This document shows, piece after piece, positions 1 through 5,712 of a stretch of DNA of 34,269 nt. How positions within the stretch are numbered: position 1 is the first letter of the stretch; every line of letters starts with the position of its first letter. The DNA comes from an uncultured Planctomycetales bacterium (GTDB taxonomy: Bacteria; Planctomycetota; Phycisphaerae; UBA1845; PWPN01): assembly GCA_964569525.1 (NCBI GenBank), contig CAZMVS010000138.1:1-34269 (forward strand). The letters are read 5' to 3'. Made by a program: the position numbers and the translations under genes. The notes beneath the pieces are model-generated. The model worked only from the letters and a program-made list of their open reading frames with translations, ran no database searches and was not told the DNA's origin.

Positions 1-683
1 CGATCACCGCCCAAGCCACTACGATTGACCACTATGCCCATGGGCCGGTTCAGCGCACGACCGACATCGACAGCCATTTCCAGATCATGCAGGCCGAAAC
101 GGGTCGGTTCTGTGACGAGGCAGAGGAAGTCGCAGTCTTTAACTGCCTCTACGACTGGGCAACTGGTGCCCGGTGGTGCGTCGATGATGGTGATTTCTTT
201 GTTGTTTTTTCGACCACGTTGAATCAAATCCGCGATAACTGATACCGCCCGGATTTCACCAATTTTGAGAAATCCATGGGCAAAAGCCAGCTCGTCACAA
301 TGTCCTTCCTCGATGGTCCCGATTTCCCGCGGTTTTTCCGTAATGGCTGCCTGCTCGCAGACCAATGCGCATCCTCCACAAGAATGACATAGCTCAGGGA
401 AGACATCAATCTTGTTCGGCAGACAAATGATCGCACCATAAGCACACAGGCGGCTGCACTGGCCGCAGTAATTGCAACGTGATTCATCCACCGAGGGAAC
501 GAGGACTGTTACCGGTTCGTGCGAGGAAATGGTGGGTTTAAGGTATAGATGGCAGTCGGGTTCTTCCACGTCACAATCAAGCAACTGAGTTGAAACGCCT
601 TTTTGGGCGAAACTAAGTGCCAAGTTGACGGAGACAGTGGTTTTGCCGACGCCTCCTTTTCCACTGGCCAAAGCGATAAGCAT
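1..683 (-). CDS. MinD/ParA-superfamily P-loop ATPase with inserted 2x[4Fe-4S] ferredoxin module (N-terminus complete; C-terminus runs off the window)
   Basis: Absent from the ORF track because there is no stop codon in the window. My reverse-strand translation from ATG 683..681 reads [29 protein letters not shown] (deviant Walker A). It continues with [11 protein letters not shown] and [11 protein letters not shown] (two CxxCxxCxxxC motifs), then [11 protein letters not shown]. Confidence 0.85.
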
Positions 684-697
684 GGTTCACCAATGAT

Positions 698-1012
698 TCA
701 AGAAGAGGCATTAAATTTATCGACGGCTTCGCGGACTTTACCGGAAGCTTCTACGTAACGAATCCCCGCAGTTTGCAGGGCGTTTTCGGCCTTGGGACCC
801 AGCCGTCCGGAGAGGATAACCTCCGCTCCACGATTAGCGATTTCCTGGACGGCGGCAGGTCCTGCACCACCTGCCATTCCACTGGCAGGGTTGGAAAAGG
901 CCTCAAACTTGCCGGTTTCAGAGTCAATAATCAGGAAATAGCGACAACGTCCGAACTGTTCCGATATCTCTGCATCCATTGAACCACCGCTGGCGGCAAC
1001 TGCGATTTTCAT
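698..1012 (-). CDS. NifX/NifB-C-terminal-like (dinitrogenase FeMo-cofactor biosynthesis domain) small protein
   Basis: 104-aa ORF MKIAVAASGG...FGRCRYFLIID...GGAGPAAVQEIANRGAEVILSGRLGPKA has the typical layout of the NifB/NifX/NifY domain family. GAGGAG Shine-Dalgarno (SD) before the ATG. Starts 14 nt upstream of the MinD-like gene. Confidence 0.8.
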   Translation of the reverse strand: MKIAVAASGGSMDAEISEQFGRCRYFLIIDSETGKFEAFSNPASGMAGGAGPAAVQEIANRGAEVILSGRLGPKAENALQTAGIRYVEASGKVREAVDKFNASS

Positions 1013-1051
1013 GTCTAAACTCCTCTAAGGTTAAAAGAGATTCACCTTGTT

Positions 1052-1921
1052 TTATGCGCGCTTTACACCTTTATGATGGTGGACAACCATTTTCCCCACC
1101 TCACACTCAATGTGTCGGGCAATAACCGGGCATTTGGCCTTAAGTAGGAAAAAGATTTCACGATCCAGGTCGCTTAAGGTTTCATAATTGCCCTGCCCTT
1201 TGGAAATAACAAGGTCCGCTTGGTGAAAACGCTGCTGAAATTCCGGCGAGCACACTTCCAGGATCGTGCCCGGCGCGTCACAGCCGTTGTCGATAACCTC
1301 GGCGATTTCAGATAAACGTGCGGCCTCGGCATCTTCGCGGACTGCATCATTAATAACCGGTGCGCCTTTGACCGCCACAGTGACTTTTTTTGTCGGCAAA
1401 CGCTCGATCAGTAAACGGTCAAGGACAATTTCACCAGCGTTATCGGCAAGGTAAAGAATGTTGCCTGCGGACTCAGCGCTGGTTTTCAAGTCTTCGACGG
1501 CCCCTTCGTTGATAACAGCATCGGCGGCTTGCTCAAGAGATTCGTGGACGTCATCTTCGCTGACCTGGCTTTTGCAACCGAAATCGATAATGTTCCCTGC
1601 AATGGCCAAACGCAAGGCGGTATTGAATGGATCGTCGGATTGTTCCACCTCTTGTTGCAGACGAGGATACAAGTGCAACGCCAATTCGTTTGAGTGCTGT
1701 TTGACGGTTCGGTAGGGATCGATGTCACCGGTTAGCTCGCGCAGACGACGATGAATCTCCCTGCCAATTCGTGGCGGTGATTGATCCATGTCCATGTCAG
1801 CCGCCATCTGCAACGTAGCCCGCAGAATTTGCTCGTGAATTCGCGGTTCATTTGTTGCCAACCGGGCGGCATCCAAAGCCTGACGAACAAAACAGGGTAC
1901 ACAATCCAAGTACGTGCGCAC
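1052..1921 (-). CDS. DUF89/ARMT1-like (damage-control phosphatase family) protein
   Basis: 289 aa with an N-terminal CVPCFVRQ, plus LADNAGEIVLD and ISKGQGNYETL motifs characteristic of DUF89. GTG start lies 3 nt after the stop of the upstream gene. Confidence 0.8.
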   Translation of the reverse strand: MRTYLDCVPCFVRQALDAARLATNEPRIHEQILRATLQMAADMDMDQSPPRIGREIHRRLRELTGDIDPYRTVKQHSNELALHLYPRLQQEVEQSDDPFNTALRLAIAGNIIDFGCKSQVSEDDVHESLEQAADAVINEGAVEDLKTSAESAGNILYLADNAGEIVLDRLLIERLPTKKVTVAVKGAPVINDAVREDAEAARLSEIAEVIDNGCDAPGTILEVCSPEFQQRFHQADLVISKGQGNYETLSDLDREIFFLLKAKCPVIARHIECEVGKMVVHHHKGVKRA

Positions 1922-1924
1922 GCC

Positions 1925-2488
1925 TTAATCCGCCAACTCGATAGCGTCGCTTGGACATTCTTCTACACACAGGCCGCATCCCGTGCATTTCTCCTCGTCT
2001 ACCATCACCTGTTCGTTCATGGTGATCGCTTCCGTGGGGCAGACCTCTACACAAGCTCCACAAAGCACGCACTTTTCCTGATCGATTTTGGCTACCATCC
2101 GTGATCTCCCTGTTTTTGTTATCTGGTTTATTCGAGAGCGGATCTGCTGAAGCTGTTGCTCCATCATCTGCGCTTGTTGTTTGAGAGCCTCTAGTTCGCT
2201 TTCTCCGTTGGTGCCGGCCCGCGATTGGGGACCGGCGGGTGGAACTGGCTCCGACTCATCTTGCTCGCTACCGGGAGCCTGAGGTCCGGGCCAAGCTGGT
2301 CCAAATCCCGTTGCCCGACCTTGACCTTGTCCTCGGCCACGACCACCACGACTACCCCGGCCTTGACCTCGGCCTTGTCCACCGCCGCCGCGACCGCCGC
2401 CTTGACCGCCACCACCGCGGCTACGGCCGCCACCTTGTCCTCTACCTCGGCCTTTATCCGGAGGACCTGTTCGATCACCCCATGGCAT
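1925..2488 (-). CDS. DUF5320-like protein (MPxGDRTGP N-terminus, RGG-rich tract, coiled coil) fused to a 2x[4Fe-4S] ferredoxin domain
   Basis: 187 aa: MPWGDRTGPP, then a roughly 46-aa G/R/Q tract, then ELEALKQQAQMMEQQLQQI, then CVLCGACVEVCP and CTGCGLCVEECP. AAGGGAG SD upstream. Confidence 0.75.
   Translation of the reverse strand: MPWGDRTGPPDKGRGRGQGGGRSRGGGGQGGGRGGGGQGRGQGRGSRGGRGRGQGQGRATGFGPAWPGPQAPGSEQDESEPVPPAGPQSRAGTNGESELEALKQQAQMMEQQLQQIRSRINQITKTGRSRMVAKIDQEKCVLCGACVEVCPTEAITMNEQVMVDEEKCTGCGLCVEECPSDAIELAD
2315..2452 (-). repeat. Coding low-complexity RGG/RGQ tract
   Basis: GRGRGQGGGRSRGGGGQGGGRGGGGQGRGQGRGSRGGRGRGQGQGR, encoded by repetitive GC-rich ggc/cgg/cca DNA. This tract generates the spurious ORFs in the other frames. 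Confidence 0.9.
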
Positions 2489-2581
2489 GGGATTTACTCC
2501 CTTCTAAGTGGAAAGGGAAAAGTAAACTGCCACGAATTTACAATCTTCGGACAGTTTACCAAAATGGGTTTGCTCGAAAAA

Positions 2582-2971
2582 TTACTGCTTTTGTTGTTTT
2601 TCCGCTTCGAGTTCCTCGATTCGTTGCTTGATTTCCTGCAACGTGGATTCCATATCCTGAGCCTGTTGTTTCAGCATGGCCGCTTCTTGCTCCGGAGCTT
2701 GTGGAGCAGGATAACCCGGTTGGGCACCATAATAATAGGGATTGGGTGTTTGCGCATAGCCATAATCAGGCGCTCCCCAAGATCCTGCTCGCCAGCCACG
2801 ACCCCAGCCCCGGCCTAAACCGCGGCCTCGGCCCCAACCACGACCCCAACCCATACCACGTCCGGGTGCGGGATGCATGTATCCAGGAGCGGGATAACCA
2901 GCACAGTAACCTAGTCCACGACCAGTCATTGGCCCCATTCCCATCGGTCCAGTACGATCTCCAGCTGGCAT
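2582..2971 (-). CDS. DUF5320-like protein (paralogue of 1925..2488 without the ferredoxin domain)
   Basis: 129 aa: MPAGDRTGPMGMGPMTGRGLGYCAG, an RGW-rich tract, and a C-terminal coiled coil EAAMLKQQAQDMESTLQEIKQRIEELE that parallels the neighbouring paralogue. GGAGGTG SD upstream. Confidence 0.75.
   Translation of the reverse strand: MPAGDRTGPMGMGPMTGRGLGYCAGYPAPGYMHPAPGRGMGWGRGWGRGRGLGRGWGRGWRAGSWGAPDYGYAQTPNPYYYGAQPGYPAPQAPEQEAAMLKQQAQDMESTLQEIKQRIEELEAEKQQKQ
2774..2863 (-). repeat. Coding low-complexity RGW tract
   Basis: GRGMGWGRGWGRGRGLGRGWGRGWRAGSWG. Confidence 0.9.
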
Positions 2972-3034
2972 AATATCACCTCCGTATAAGTTAGTAGCCT
3001 GTTTGTTTCAGAAACCTATCCGCAGGTATTCATC

Positions 3035-3050
3035 TGCAGGAATCGTGCCA
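3035..3050 (-). promoter_or_regulatory. Sigma-54 (-24/-12) promoter candidate for the DUF5320...MinD-like cluster
   Basis: The minus strand reads TGGCACGATTCCTGCA against the consensus TGGCACG-N4-TTGCW. GG and GC have the correct spacing and there is one mismatch. It lies about 65 nt upstream of ATG 2971 and directly downstream of a sigma-54 activator gene. Confidence 0.6.
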
Positions 3051-3234
3051 ACCACCGCACATATGCGTAAGTTCTTAATACAAGGGAACTTATAAAATTT
3101 AAATGGCCGGAAAAAGGCCGACCCCTGTGTTTCTTAAATGTTACTATCATTATTATAATAATTATAAGTATTTAATTTATAAGAAATAATGGCGATTGAA
3201 CAGTATCCATGTAAGTAACATTTGTGAAACTGTG

Positions 3235-4593
3235 TTATTTTGGGGGGATATCAAGCTTACGCATTTTACGCCATAGGGTGGTGCGGCTGATGCCCAATTC
3301 TCGGCTGGCGGTGACTTTGTTCCAGTGGTGGCGTTTCAGAACCGCCTCGATGGCCTGTCGTTCTGACGCAGCGAGGATGGCCCTACCGCTTTCATCGGTA
3401 TTGTGAACCGGTTGATGGGCGCTTTGGGATATTTCTTCCGGTAGATGAGCTAGATTGATGGTCGGTTCCTTGACCATGACGAATGCGTGTTCGACGGCAT
3501 GCTCCAATTCTCGAACATTGCCAGGCCAATTATAGGTAACCAAGGCCCGCATGGCTTCACCGGAAACGTTTCGGACCTGCTTTCCCATCAGTTGGTTGAA
3601 TCGTTCGATAAAATGTTCGACCAATAGGGGAATATCTTCCGTACGTTCCCGTAGTGGTGGCAAGCTCAATCGTACGGTATTCAGACGATAAAAGAGGTCC
3701 TGCCGAAAACTTCCTTCCTCCACCAAGGCTCGTAAATTGCGATGAGTTGCAGCAAGTACCCGGGCATCGGTGGTTCGGGTGGTGCTTGATCCAACCGGTT
3801 CGAAAGCCCCTTCCTGGAGAACTCGCAAGAGCTTGACCTGCATCATGGGCGAGGTATCGCCGATTTCGTCCAAGAAGATGGTTCCGCCATGGGCCAGTTC
3901 AAAGCGGCCCTTGCGGTCCGCGCGGGCATCTGTAAACGCGCCGGCAACGTGGCCGAAAAGCTCTGATTCCAGCAGTGAATCAGGCAGGGCACCGCAATTG
4001 ACCTTCACAAAAGGCCCTTCGTGGCGGAGGCTTTCATTGTGAATGGCCCGGGCTAATAAGTCCTTGCCGGTCCCGGTTTCTCCTTCAATGAGTACTCCCG
4101 CATTGCTGGTCGCGATATCGGGGACCAGGGCGAAGATTTCCTGCATGCGGTGGTTTTTACTGAGTAGGTCGTGGAGCGAATACCGCCGGCGCATTTCACG
4201 CCGCAATCCTTCCACTGCGGTTAAATCGCGGAAGGTTTCCACGCCCCCGATCGCGTTGCCCGACTGATCATGCAGAACCGCAGTGGACACACTGATGGGA
4301 ATTTCCTCATTCCGGCGGTTGAGGATGGTGATCTCCAGGCCGGAAATCCTTCGTTCGGTACGCAGGGACTCATCAAGCAGGCAGCCGCCTTGGCAGACTG
4401 AGGAGCGAAAGATGTTGTAGCATTTTTGACCGATGGCTTCTTCAGCGGTGAAACCGGTGATTCGTTCCGCCGCCCGGTTGAAGCTGGTGATGACAAAATC
4501 CCGATCCACAGTAAAAACACCGTCAGCGATGGAATCCAGGATGGTAGCTACCTGTTCAGGTTCCAAGGTTGTTTTCGATGTTTGCGAAGCCAT
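3235..4593 (-). CDS. Sigma-54-dependent transcriptional activator (PAS sensor + AAA+ + Fis-type HTH)
   Basis: 452 aa with an N-terminal PAS-like region (ILDSIADGVFTVDRDFVITSFNRAAERITGF). Walker A is GETGTGKDLLA, the GAFTGA variant is GAFTDA, and IFLDEIGD is present. C-terminal HTH is ELGISRTTLWRKMRKL. Confidence 0.9.
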   Translation of the reverse strand: MASQTSKTTLEPEQVATILDSIADGVFTVDRDFVITSFNRAAERITGFTAEEAIGQKCYNIFRSSVCQGGCLLDESLRTERRISGLEITILNRRNEEIPISVSTAVLHDQSGNAIGGVETFRDLTAVEGLRREMRRRYSLHDLLSKNHRMQEIFALVPDIATSNAGVLIEGETGTGKDLLARAIHNESLRHEGPFVKVNCGALPDSLLESELFGHVAGAFTDARADRKGRFELAHGGTIFLDEIGDTSPMMQVKLLRVLQEGAFEPVGSSTTRTTDARVLAATHRNLRALVEEGSFRQDLFYRLNTVRLSLPPLRERTEDIPLLVEHFIERFNQLMGKQVRNVSGEAMRALVTYNWPGNVRELEHAVEHAFVMVKEPTINLAHLPEEISQSAHQPVHNTDESGRAILAASERQAIEAVLKRHHWNKVTASRELGISRTTLWRKMRKLDIPPK

Positions 4594-4842
4594 TTATCGC
4601 GATTATATCCAATGTGAGAGCTATTAGCTATGCGATGGCCTTGTTTTGCTGAGGTCGATTTTGTCAAAACGTCCTTTTGTGTTAATGCTCTTGGGAGTGG
4701 GTATATAAAAGTTGCAGCTGGAAGCCTGCTCGCTAGACTTATGCGTTTTACTAAAATTCCACGCTGGCGTATGTCATATTGAAACTTGGATATTGAGGGT
4801 AATATGCGGATGGGTTGGGTGTTTTGAGGTTGGAACGGTCTT

Positions 4843-5712
4843 ATGCGGATTGATTTGGAAAAAATTCGCCGAGAGAAACCTCTCCCGGACTTGTTGCAAT
4901 TTGCCTTGGTGAATATCAACAAGCCAAGCGGTCCGACTTCGTTCAAGGTCTCACAGGCGGTTCGCAAAATTCTCGGGCTGAAAAAGGGAGCCCACATGGG
5001 CACGCTTGATCCGGCGGTGACGGGGGTGCTGCCGGTGACTTTAGGTCGTGCTTGTCGGTTGGCGGAGTATTTCATGCATCGGGATAAATCCTACACGGGT
5101 ATCATGCGGCTGCACGGAGAGTTGACGGAGGAGGTGCTGTGGGAGGAAATGCAAAAATTTGTGGGCCGAATAACTCAGATTCCACCCCGCCGCTCGGCGG
5201 TTAAAAGAGCACCCCGGCAACGGGAAGTGAAGCGTTTCGAGCTGCTCGAAAAAAATGAGAGAGACGTGCTGTTTGTGGCGGAAGTCGAAGCGGGCACCTA
5301 TATCCGGACTTTGGTTCATGATCTTGGTCAAAAAACATGTGGTGCGCACATGCTCAAGTTGCATCGAACCAAGGCAGGTATTTTCGACGAATCCACCATG
5401 TGGGAATTTGATGAATTCCTTCAGCGTGTGGAGCGATATGAAAAAGGGGATGAAAAAGCGATTCGAGAGCTCCTGATTCCGGCGGAAATTGTTTCAACTT
5501 TATTACCTGTGGCATATGTGAAAGAAAATTCCGTTCAGAAGGCGTATTTTGGTCAGCCTTTAAGACAGGACGACTATGTCGAACTCCCTGATTTGGAAGA
5601 AAATACCCGTTTCTGCCTTTTCCATGGAGATACTTTCATCGCGGTGCAACGAAAAGTTATCCAAGACGATATTGTCGGGAAGTATGAATTTGTATTGACG
5701 CAGAATGTTTAA
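4843..5712 (+). CDS. truB: Pseudouridine synthase of the TruB family, archaeal/eukaryotic Cbf5-like subtype with a C-terminal PUA-like region
   Basis: 289 aa with NINKPSGPTSFKV, GTLDPAVTGVLPVTLGRA (catalytic Asp), KSYTGIMRLHG, IPPRRSAVKR, VEAGTYIRTLVHDLG and GAHMLKLHRTKAG. These blocks track archaeal Cbf5 as I remember it much more closely than E. coli-type TruB. Confidence 0.85.
   Translation: MRIDLEKIRREKPLPDLLQFALVNINKPSGPTSFKVSQAVRKILGLKKGAHMGTLDPAVTGVLPVTLGRACRLAEYFMHRDKSYTGIMRLHGELTEEVLWEEMQKFVGRITQIPPRRSAVKRAPRQREVKRFELLEKNERDVLFVAEVEAGTYIRTLVHDLGQKTCGAHMLKLHRTKAGIFDESTMWEFDEFLQRVERYEKGDEKAIRELLIPAEIVSTLLPVAYVKENSVQKAYFGQPLRQDDYVELPDLEENTRFCLFHGDTFIAVQRKVIQDDIVGKYEFVLTQNV

Follow-up and report, generated by a model that had tools for sequence, protein, structure and literature searches.

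The window analysed here, a 34-kb stretch of DNA (34,269 nt), begins at base 1 of contig C138 in the genome of an uncultured planctomycete (88% complete, 473 contigs) and carries at its left end a cluster of six genes, all encoded on the minus strand according to translation of the open reading frames (ORFs). The first gene in the direction of transcription encodes a sigma-54 enhancer-binding protein (EBP), from now on referred to as the activator, and is followed by genes for a DUF5320 protein, a DUF5320-like domain fused to a ferredoxin, a DUF89 protein, a small PF02579 protein and a MinD/ParA-type ATPase with a ferredoxin-like insert (Table 1). An earlier note on this DNA had made these six domain assignments, including DUF5320, NifX/PF02579 and DUF89, and each was confirmed by Pfam, the DUF5320-like head of the ferredoxin fusion being a weak match under the cut-off (3.8e-5). 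Comparable DUF5320-ferredoxin fusions are present in three related loci (L079, L080 and L085). The co-directional arrangement with junctions of 3-93 nt described in the note likewise holds: the five structural genes are spaced by 93, 3, 39 and 14 nt, and a 263-nt spacer separates the activator gene from the DUF5320 gene. A near-consensus -24/-12 promoter had been placed ahead of the first structural gene, and TGGCACGATTCCTGCA, located 64 nt upstream of the DUF5320 start codon (ATG at 2971), is the single match to TGGCACN5YTGCW in the window, compared with 0.03 matches expected by chance. RpoN is encoded on contig C125, and two HU/IHF-family genes are found elsewhere in the genome.

The cluster had also been expected to continue beyond the left edge of the window. 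Extension within C138 is impossible because the window starts at its first base, and a blastn search within the genome found no contig end overlapping the start of C138; the remainder could, however, be found at the protein level. A tblastn search of the genome located MinD-ferredoxin sequence at the start of contig C427, where positions 2-163 read in frame 2 as QFCREKNIPLLAEIPDD...QQVLA*, corresponding to the last 54 codons and to a C-terminus typical of the MinD-ferredoxin ATPase family. When the window fragment and the C427 piece are compared with six full-length homologues, a gap of only about 3 residues remains and C138 and C427 therefore abut. Contig C427 thus carries the end of the first ATPase gene and three more genes. 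The PF02579 protein among them matches positions 265-365 of the NCBIfam MrpORP model NF041136 (1.9e-31), with a whole-protein score far under the cut-off. B12-radical SAM and PCMT genes further along C427 were rejected as cluster members based on a 450-nt gap and the lack of synteny in 16 related loci. TrmO_N was rejected as a core member, being clustered in just 4 of the 59 genomes that carry it.

The orp system of Desulfovibrio vulgaris Hildenborough (DvH) has reportedly been under study since a 2011 article by Fievet in J Bacteriol. In this organism, DVU2103-2105 (orp3-5) and DVU2107-2109 (orp7-9) form two divergent sigma-54 operons activated by OrpR (DVU2106) with IHF (PMC3897727). Orp3 and Orp4 are paralogous ATPases with two [4Fe-4S] motifs each, Orp5 is homologous to a small [2Fe-2S] protein and Orp8 is the orange protein, whose D. 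gigas counterpart holds a Mo-Cu-S cluster (PMC6345978). Orp9, also known as MrpORP, combines an Mrp/NBP35 and a Di-Nase domain in one polypeptide and is able to donate Fe-S clusters in vitro to Orp3, Orp4 and Orp8 (PMC6345978). The gene set of the window together with its PAS-containing sigma-54 activator corresponds to this orp/ORP-complex system (PMC3897727, PMC8359166, PMC6345978); the earlier statement that such gene combinations have no assigned function is thus out of date, and the dedicated activator considered notable at the time is the known OrpR arrangement. Shared with DvH are an orange-protein-like PF02579 protein, two paralogous MinD-type ATPases with 2x[4Fe-4S], a Di-Nase domain as found in Orp9, a small protein starting with MPxGD encoded first behind a sigma-54 promoter and an IHF-like site between the candidate activator site and the promoter. 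In contrast to DvH, where two divergent operons flank the activator gene, the window genes form a single co-directional operon, the DUF5320-ferredoxin, DUF89 and TrmO_N genes are added, no Orp7 could be recognized, and the host is a planctomycete and not a deltaproteobacterium. We consider it likely that the cluster represents an orp-type operon of an uncultured anaerobic planctomycete, probably a member of the Phycisphaerae, that is regulated by an OrpR-type activator and whose products handle metal-sulfur clusters.

Table 1 Features of the orp-type cluster in the window (contig C138 unless C427 is given); L123/L124 are two related metagenome contigs.
Feature	Position	Strand	Basis and remarks
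OrpR-like sigma-54 EBP, 452 amino acids	3235..4593	-	Pfam: PAS + Sigma54_activat (9e-68) + AAA_lid_14 + HTH_8
PAS cysteine triad C58-x8-C67-x3-C71	4381..4422	-	Translation; spacing equals C52/C61/C65 of DvH OrpR
GAFTDA variant of the sigma-54 contact loop GAFTGA, residues 218-223	3925..3942	-	Alignment of 46 EBPs
DUF5320/PF17253 protein, 129 amino acids, probable Orp5 counterpart	2582..2971	-	Pfam 4.6e-25; 4742 homologues
Shine-Dalgarno sequence GGAGG of the DUF5320 gene	2983..2979	-	Precedes ATG at 2971; kept in L123/L124
DUF5320-like head fused to 2x[4Fe-4S] ferredoxin, 187 amino acids	1925..2488	-	Pfam
DUF89/ARMT1-like metal-dependent phosphatase homologue, 289 amino acids, subfamily I type	1052..1921	-	Pfam 1.7e-76
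Orange-protein (Orp8)-like Nitro_FeMo-Co/PF02579 protein, 104 amino acids	698..1012	-	Pfam 2.9e-21
MinD/ParA-type ATPase with 2x[4Fe-4S] insert (Orp3/Orp4-like), first 227 residues	1..683 (coding 683..3)	-	Pfam ParA/CbiA P-loop + two Fer4, CxxCxxCxxxC motifs; contig end cuts gene
Second MinD-ferredoxin ATPase	C427:163-1068		ATG overlaps stop codon of first ATPase gene
Second PF02579 protein, homologue of the MrpORP C-terminal (Di-Nase) domain	C427:1194-1532		
TrmO_N protein	C427:1569-2060		
Sigma-54 -24/-12 promoter TGGCACGATTCCTGCA	3035..3050	-	GG-N10-GC spacing; predicted transcription start near 3024
Conserved element GTTTCAcAAaTGtTAC (also written GTTTCAnAAnTGnTAC from the alignment)	3215..3230	-	5 nt past activator stop, about -200 from predicted start; candidate activator site
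GAAAC followed by GGCC-TTTTTCC-GGCC, centre 3112, about -88	3104..3133	-	Partly conserved as GCCTnTTnnnGGCCA in L123/L124
IHF-like site TATTAAGAACTTA, centre about -50	3068..3080	-	8/9 specified positions of WATCARNNNNTTR; conserved as TATAAACCACTTA in L123/L124
Conserved element TTTCTGAAACA of the 5' untranslated region (TTTnTGAAACA across the alignment)	3004..3014	-	+11 to +21
Sigma-70-like promoter match upstream of the activator gene, TTAACA-16-CAAAAT with TG	4658..4685	-	Weak; consensus scan only, not above chance

The closest matches of the window PF02579 protein in the PDB are MTH1175 (1eo1, 8e-16), TM1816 (1rdu, 6e-15) and D. gigas ORP (2wfb, 1.2e-14). It has the same size and domain as these proteins; the likeness is one of sequence, and metal-cluster binding is predicted. 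As the PF02579 domain is common to NifX, NafY and the C-terminus of NifB (PMC6345978), the cluster, with its NifX/NafY/NifB-C-like carriers, might be viewed as left over from, or accessory to, FeMo-cofactor biosynthesis for nitrogenase. However, no PF00148 nitrogenase component was found in the 88%-complete genome, in agreement with the non-nif context noted earlier, all four PF02579 genes of the genome are small stand-alone ORFs and the closest solved relatives do not include NifX. Such a nif connection is scarcely credible and was rejected. The published DvH orp2 promoter sequence ends with ATGCCATACGGAGATG, encoding MPYGD, the kind of N-terminus characteristic of DUF5320; the two DUF5320 proteins of the window begin with MPAGD and MPWGD. 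These five N-terminal residues and the gene position suggest that DUF5320 is probably the counterpart of Orp5.

OrpR senses redox conditions via a [4Fe-4S] cluster in its PAS domain; C52, C61 and C65 are required for control, and removal of the PAS domain or replacement of the cysteines results in constitutive expression (PMC8359166). The window activator resembles OrpR in its PAS-AAA+-HTH_8 layout, its CX8CX3C triad, the GAFTDA loop, with which DVU2106 is also listed by Kazakov et al. (PMC4641369), and in the location of its gene next to orp genes with a -24/-12 promoter. Alignment showed the cysteine triad to be kept in 40 related EBPs and missing from outgroups. In a maximum likelihood tree of 46 EBPs, which does not include the DvH OrpR sequence, the cysteine-triad EBPs form one clade with 98/96 support and the window activator falls inside it. 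By analogy with DvH OrpR, a redox-sensitive [4Fe-4S] cluster would be coordinated by C58, C67 and C71. The activator would spend ATP to open the sigma-54 promoter complex when the redox potential is low, aided by a DNA bend at the IHF-like site, while at rising potential the PAS domain would turn the activator off. Oxygen-labile Fe-S proteins would therefore be made under reducing conditions only. This regulatory logic is transferred from DvH OrpR, and conserved sequence features as well as gene linkage argue for it. The single sigma-54 promoter would drive eight genes, the final 2.2 of them on C427, in the order DUF5320, DUF5320-ferredoxin, DUF89, Orp8-like PF02579, two MinD-ferredoxin ATPases, stand-alone Di-Nase homologue and TrmO_N. 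Their products are proposed to act as a cytoplasmic multi-protein machine holding or passing on metal-sulfur clusters.

Conservation of the regulatory region was assessed by aligning the activator-DUF5320 spacer with that of L123 and L124, which encode a TruB-like protein, activator, DUF5320, ferredoxin and DUF89 in the order of the window with 91% identity for the PAS domain (P0180/P0181), 70% for DUF5320 and 77% for DUF89. The GG and GC elements of the promoter are kept in this otherwise diverged spacer, and several related loci carry sigma-54 promoters ahead of the first orp-type structural gene. The IHF-like island spans 3080..3066 in the alignment and reads TATWAAnnnnCTTACG; the IHF site of DvH orp2 is located at -43 (PMC3897727). 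The activator site of DvH orp2 likewise lies at -88 and has a T-rich centre (PMC3897727). The GGCC-TTTTTCC-GGCC element of the window, which scores as a weak terminator-like hairpin, may serve as another activator site or, alternatively, weakly terminate transcription of the activator gene. An AT-rich perfect palindrome, TTATAAT-T-ATTATAA (3153-3167), was rejected as an activator site, not being conserved in L123/L124.

Within the cysteine-triad clade, the window activator belongs to a subclade of four (group A) together with the EBPs of loci L003, L115 and L116. GTTTCA/TGAAAC is the top hexamer across the four independent group A intergenic regions, with nine occurrences and presence in all four, and this total count was reached in none of 20000 shuffles. 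We propose TGAAAC as a half-site of the group A activators. Some orp-linked loci of a second phylum contain paired ATTTCAnnnTGAAAT-like palindromes similar to this putative half-site. Two different group A loci also have a near-identical element in the leader that follows their sigma-54 promoter, namely GTTTCTGAAACAAAC at 3004-3014 of the window and GTTCCTGAAACAAAC (CCTGAAACAAAC) at L116:10776-10790, which might function as an operator or at the RNA level.

The linkage between activator and cluster was surveyed in 201 sampled genomes of the window's class, probably the Phycisphaerae. The nearest named relative is a Phycisphaerae metagenome-assembled genome (MAG), and a scan of genome contigs with the activator returned no Desulfovibrio. 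DUF5320 is present in 68 of these genomes. The window PAS domain has 46 strong matches (at least 113 bits), the next group reaching at most 72 bits. According to their coordinates, 32 of the 46 are no more than about 5 kb away from a DUF5320 gene, and another three neighbour an orp-type DUF89 gene. tblastn searches of larger flanks located full-length EBPs (49-54% identity) beside genes for ORP-like, DUF89, MinD-Fd1, MinD-Fd2 and PF02579 proteins in many loci, with synteny seen in L079, L080, L083-L086, L117, L118, L120 and L121. Two of these, L079, from the same genus as the window, and L080, show a DvH-like divergent layout. In the second phylum, such PAS domains were found in 186 of 301 genomes and orp-type neighbours at 8 or more of 25 short loci. 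The gene combination recurs in anaerobes, as the earlier note had stated. The named best PAS matches are Desulfobacterota lineages, and OrpR has been described as seemingly restricted to delta-Proteobacteria (PMC8359166). This range needs widening because OrpR-type PAS domains beside orp genes are found across the window's class and the second phylum. The L079 cluster (G064:C240) encodes proteins about 50-62% identical to those of the window and an activator of another clade, suggesting that the two clusters are not related by simple vertical descent and may represent different lineages of the orp system within one genus.

The DUF89 protein aligns with positions 2-310 of the 311 positions of the Pfam model and matches 2ffj (4e-47) and 2g8l (3e-43) in the PDB. 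Its GNIIDF, DNAGE, INDA and KGQGNYE motifs align, over the full length of the proteins, with AF1104 (2ffj) and PH1575 (2g8l), members of DUF89 subfamily I that have been called damage-control phosphatases, and the Asp-Asn, Asp and Lys positions coincide. In fission-yeast Duf8901, the corresponding residues have catalytic roles (PMC9062747), and by analogy the same may hold for the subfamily I motifs. Unlike AF1104 and PH1575, the window protein is encoded in an Fe-S/PF02579 operon and scores under the NCBIfam equivalog cut-offs (198 bits versus 440 and 188 versus 500). PF01937 matches in the class fall into two groups, a 290-amino-acid type scoring above 200 bits, to which the window protein belongs, and a longer, lower-scoring type. 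Genes of the shorter type lie within 2 kb of DUF5320 in 17 genomes from several families, while those of the longer type do so in none. DUF89, regarded in the earlier note as a notable addition, is therefore a recurrent accessory gene of orp-type clusters and not a one-off. No paper on an association of DUF89 with Fe-S/PF02579 operons was found in the literature searched. DUF89 is the sole predicted enzyme of the module and therefore offers a biochemical way in.

Two unrelated metagenome contigs carry the module with a FUR-family regulator in place of the sigma-54 activator. In L048 (3813-11458), the order is FUR, DUF5320, two PF02579, two MinD-ferredoxin ATPases and DUF89. In L046 (7464-16503), FUR lies ahead of DUF5320, two PF02579, two MinD-ferredoxin ATPases and TrmO_N, and NifU_N, a ZIP transporter and EncFtn are also encoded. 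Genes for DnaJ, a methyltransferase and a metallo-beta-lactamase are found near the module in both contigs, with an additional thioredoxin gene in L048. The module is probably regulated by OrpR-like activators in the window's class and by FUR-family regulators elsewhere. Its core consists of DUF5320, two PF02579 proteins and two MinD-ferredoxin ATPases, with DUF89 as a recurrent and TrmO_N as an occasional accessory.

Several observations weigh against an OrpR-regulated orp operon as proposed above. OrpR homologues have Asp or Glu two residues after the first cysteine (position 54 in DvH), which has been proposed as a possible fourth cluster ligand (PMC8359166), whereas the window activator has Asn60 at this position. 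Asn is also found in L003 and L115, and Asp or Glu in most other family members. The group A subclade has 100/100 support and branches apart from all other cysteine-triad EBPs in the tree, and another clade holds most of the orp-linked activators found in the class, the same-genus one among them. The gene neighbourhoods of the other group A members differ, with ApbE in L003, an SBP_bac_11-DsrE fusion and an Fe-S protein in L115 and a PF02579-like gene in L116. The DvH OrpR palindrome GGGCGYRTTTTGCGCCC was not found upstream of the promoter, where just the look-alike GGCC-TTTTTCC-GGCC is located at -88, and the candidate activator sites rest on one close relative (L123/L124) and the hexamer statistic. 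Further, the cluster has a stand-alone Di-Nase homologue in place of the Mrp/NBP35-Di-Nase fusion of Orp9, and the likeness to DvH Orp proteins and OrpR is drawn from published descriptions. Finally, for the ORP complex of Desulfovibrio itself a role in cell division has been proposed.

The separate position of group A raises the question of whether the adjacent activator could be a paralogue with another target, a different EBP serving the sigma-54 promoter. None of L003, L115 and L116 lies beside a full orp cluster, the genome contains at least 13 other EBP-like loci, and in G064, a genome of the same genus, the EBP paired with the orp genes belongs to a different clade. On the other hand, L123/L124 share the activator-promoter-DUF5320-DUF89 layout, with protein identities of 70-91%. 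The target of an EBP is usually the promoter next to its gene (Kazakov 2015, quoted in PMC8359166), and the window promoter is flanked by the GTTTCA/TGAAAC motifs common to the group A intergenic regions. In addition, the 88%-complete genome yielded no further cysteine-triad EBP, and the next PAS match has 29% identity. Control by a different EBP thus appears quite improbable, and the adjacent activator is the preferred regulator of the operon.

Among named relatives, the EBP of L003, a Phycisphaerae MAG, is closest to the activator (72% identity). L003 was rejected as a footprinting partner, as it is not orp-linked and has an ApbE gene downstream. At L003:3870-4278, a good sigma-54 promoter, TGGCACAACACATGCT, comes after the activator gene, then an ORF-free leader of about 210 nt and the ApbE gene, which encodes a flavin transferase. 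An inverted repeat, GCGCCAT-N19-ATGGCGC, lies upstream of the promoter. In L115 (3335-7701), the activator (65% identity) is followed by a 152-amino-acid protein without Pfam match, the fusion of an SBP_bac_11 (ModA-type) domain to DsrE and a Tat-signal 4Fe-4S protein, and the spacer holds a perfect palindrome, GCAGTTTCAGTGTGAAACTGC. The L115 neighbours hint at a link of the group A sensors to Mo/W or sulfur handling.

With respect to function, the complex might mainly serve cell division or septum positioning, with the MinD-like ATPases as spatial regulators and the Fe-S clusters merely as redox inputs. In DvH, inactivation of OrpR leads to morphological defects, MrpORP is polar and a septum-positioning role has been proposed (PMC8359166, PMC6345978, PMC3897727); moreover, both cluster ATPases show the deviant Walker A motif of MinD/ParA proteins. 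However, this role is termed a hypothesis in PMC8359166 itself, and the core partners of the ATPases are PF02579 cluster-binding proteins and ferredoxin domains. We favour metal-sulfur cluster handling, that is carrying, storage or delivery, over a primary role in cell division because every core protein is a predicted cluster binder and MrpORP transfers clusters to Orp proteins in vitro. Cluster handling is also favoured because a FUR gene precedes the module in other lineages, one locus additionally encoding NifU, ZIP and EncFtn, and no division genes were found nearby in the window or on C427. A mainly cell-division complex is accordingly unlikely, and the role in metal or Fe-S cofactor handling suggested by the earlier note is plausible.

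The orp/ORP system with OrpR regulation is already known in outline, and the window extends known biology instead of representing a new kind of system. New aspects are the phylum, the single operon, the stand-alone Di-Nase homologue, the added DUF89 and DUF5320-ferredoxin genes, the distinct activator subclade with its Asn residue and the candidate TGAAAC half-site, the last two also setting the activator apart from OrpR and its palindrome. The ORP complex, described more than 10 years ago, comprises an anaerobe-specific, widespread set of Fe-S and metal-cluster proteins, and the common OrpR-orp pairing in Planctomycetota of the window's class provides a wider comparative base. A more far-reaching, three-part reading can be formulated, which we regard as doubtful when taken jointly: DUF89 would be a working part of ORP machines, cysteine-triad PAS activators would be multi-phylum Fe-S sensors acting on TGAAAC-type half-sites, and the window subclade would be distinct. 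If true, DUF89 would be a genuine working part in many anaerobes and the complex would act on a phosphorylated or nucleotide-linked metal-sulfur cofactor intermediate, for example a Mo/W-S species. The cysteine-triad PAS activators would then constitute a large family of Fe-S redox sensors recognising such half-sites, and the window subclade, marked by Asn at C+2, would represent a sensor with a function of its own that was co-opted by an orp operon.

Beyond the cluster, two further stand-alone PF02579 genes are found at C75:8611-8949 and C26:2334-2708. One of the two adjoins genes for putative large Fe-S proteins and the other an ORF that, judged by eye, resembles the metallo-beta-lactamase-fold genes of L046/L048. 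The divergent neighbour of the activator gene (window 4843-5712, plus strand) encodes a pseudouridine synthase with Cbf5-like (archaeal/eukaryotic) sequence blocks, and its counterparts in L123/L124 are annotated with TruB_N and TruB_C_2. A 50-codon ORF without Pfam match lies between these two genes (window 4630-4782, plus strand). In both L123 and L124 a gene is likewise called at the equivalent location, which may reflect either a genuine small gene or the same calling error made repeatedly.

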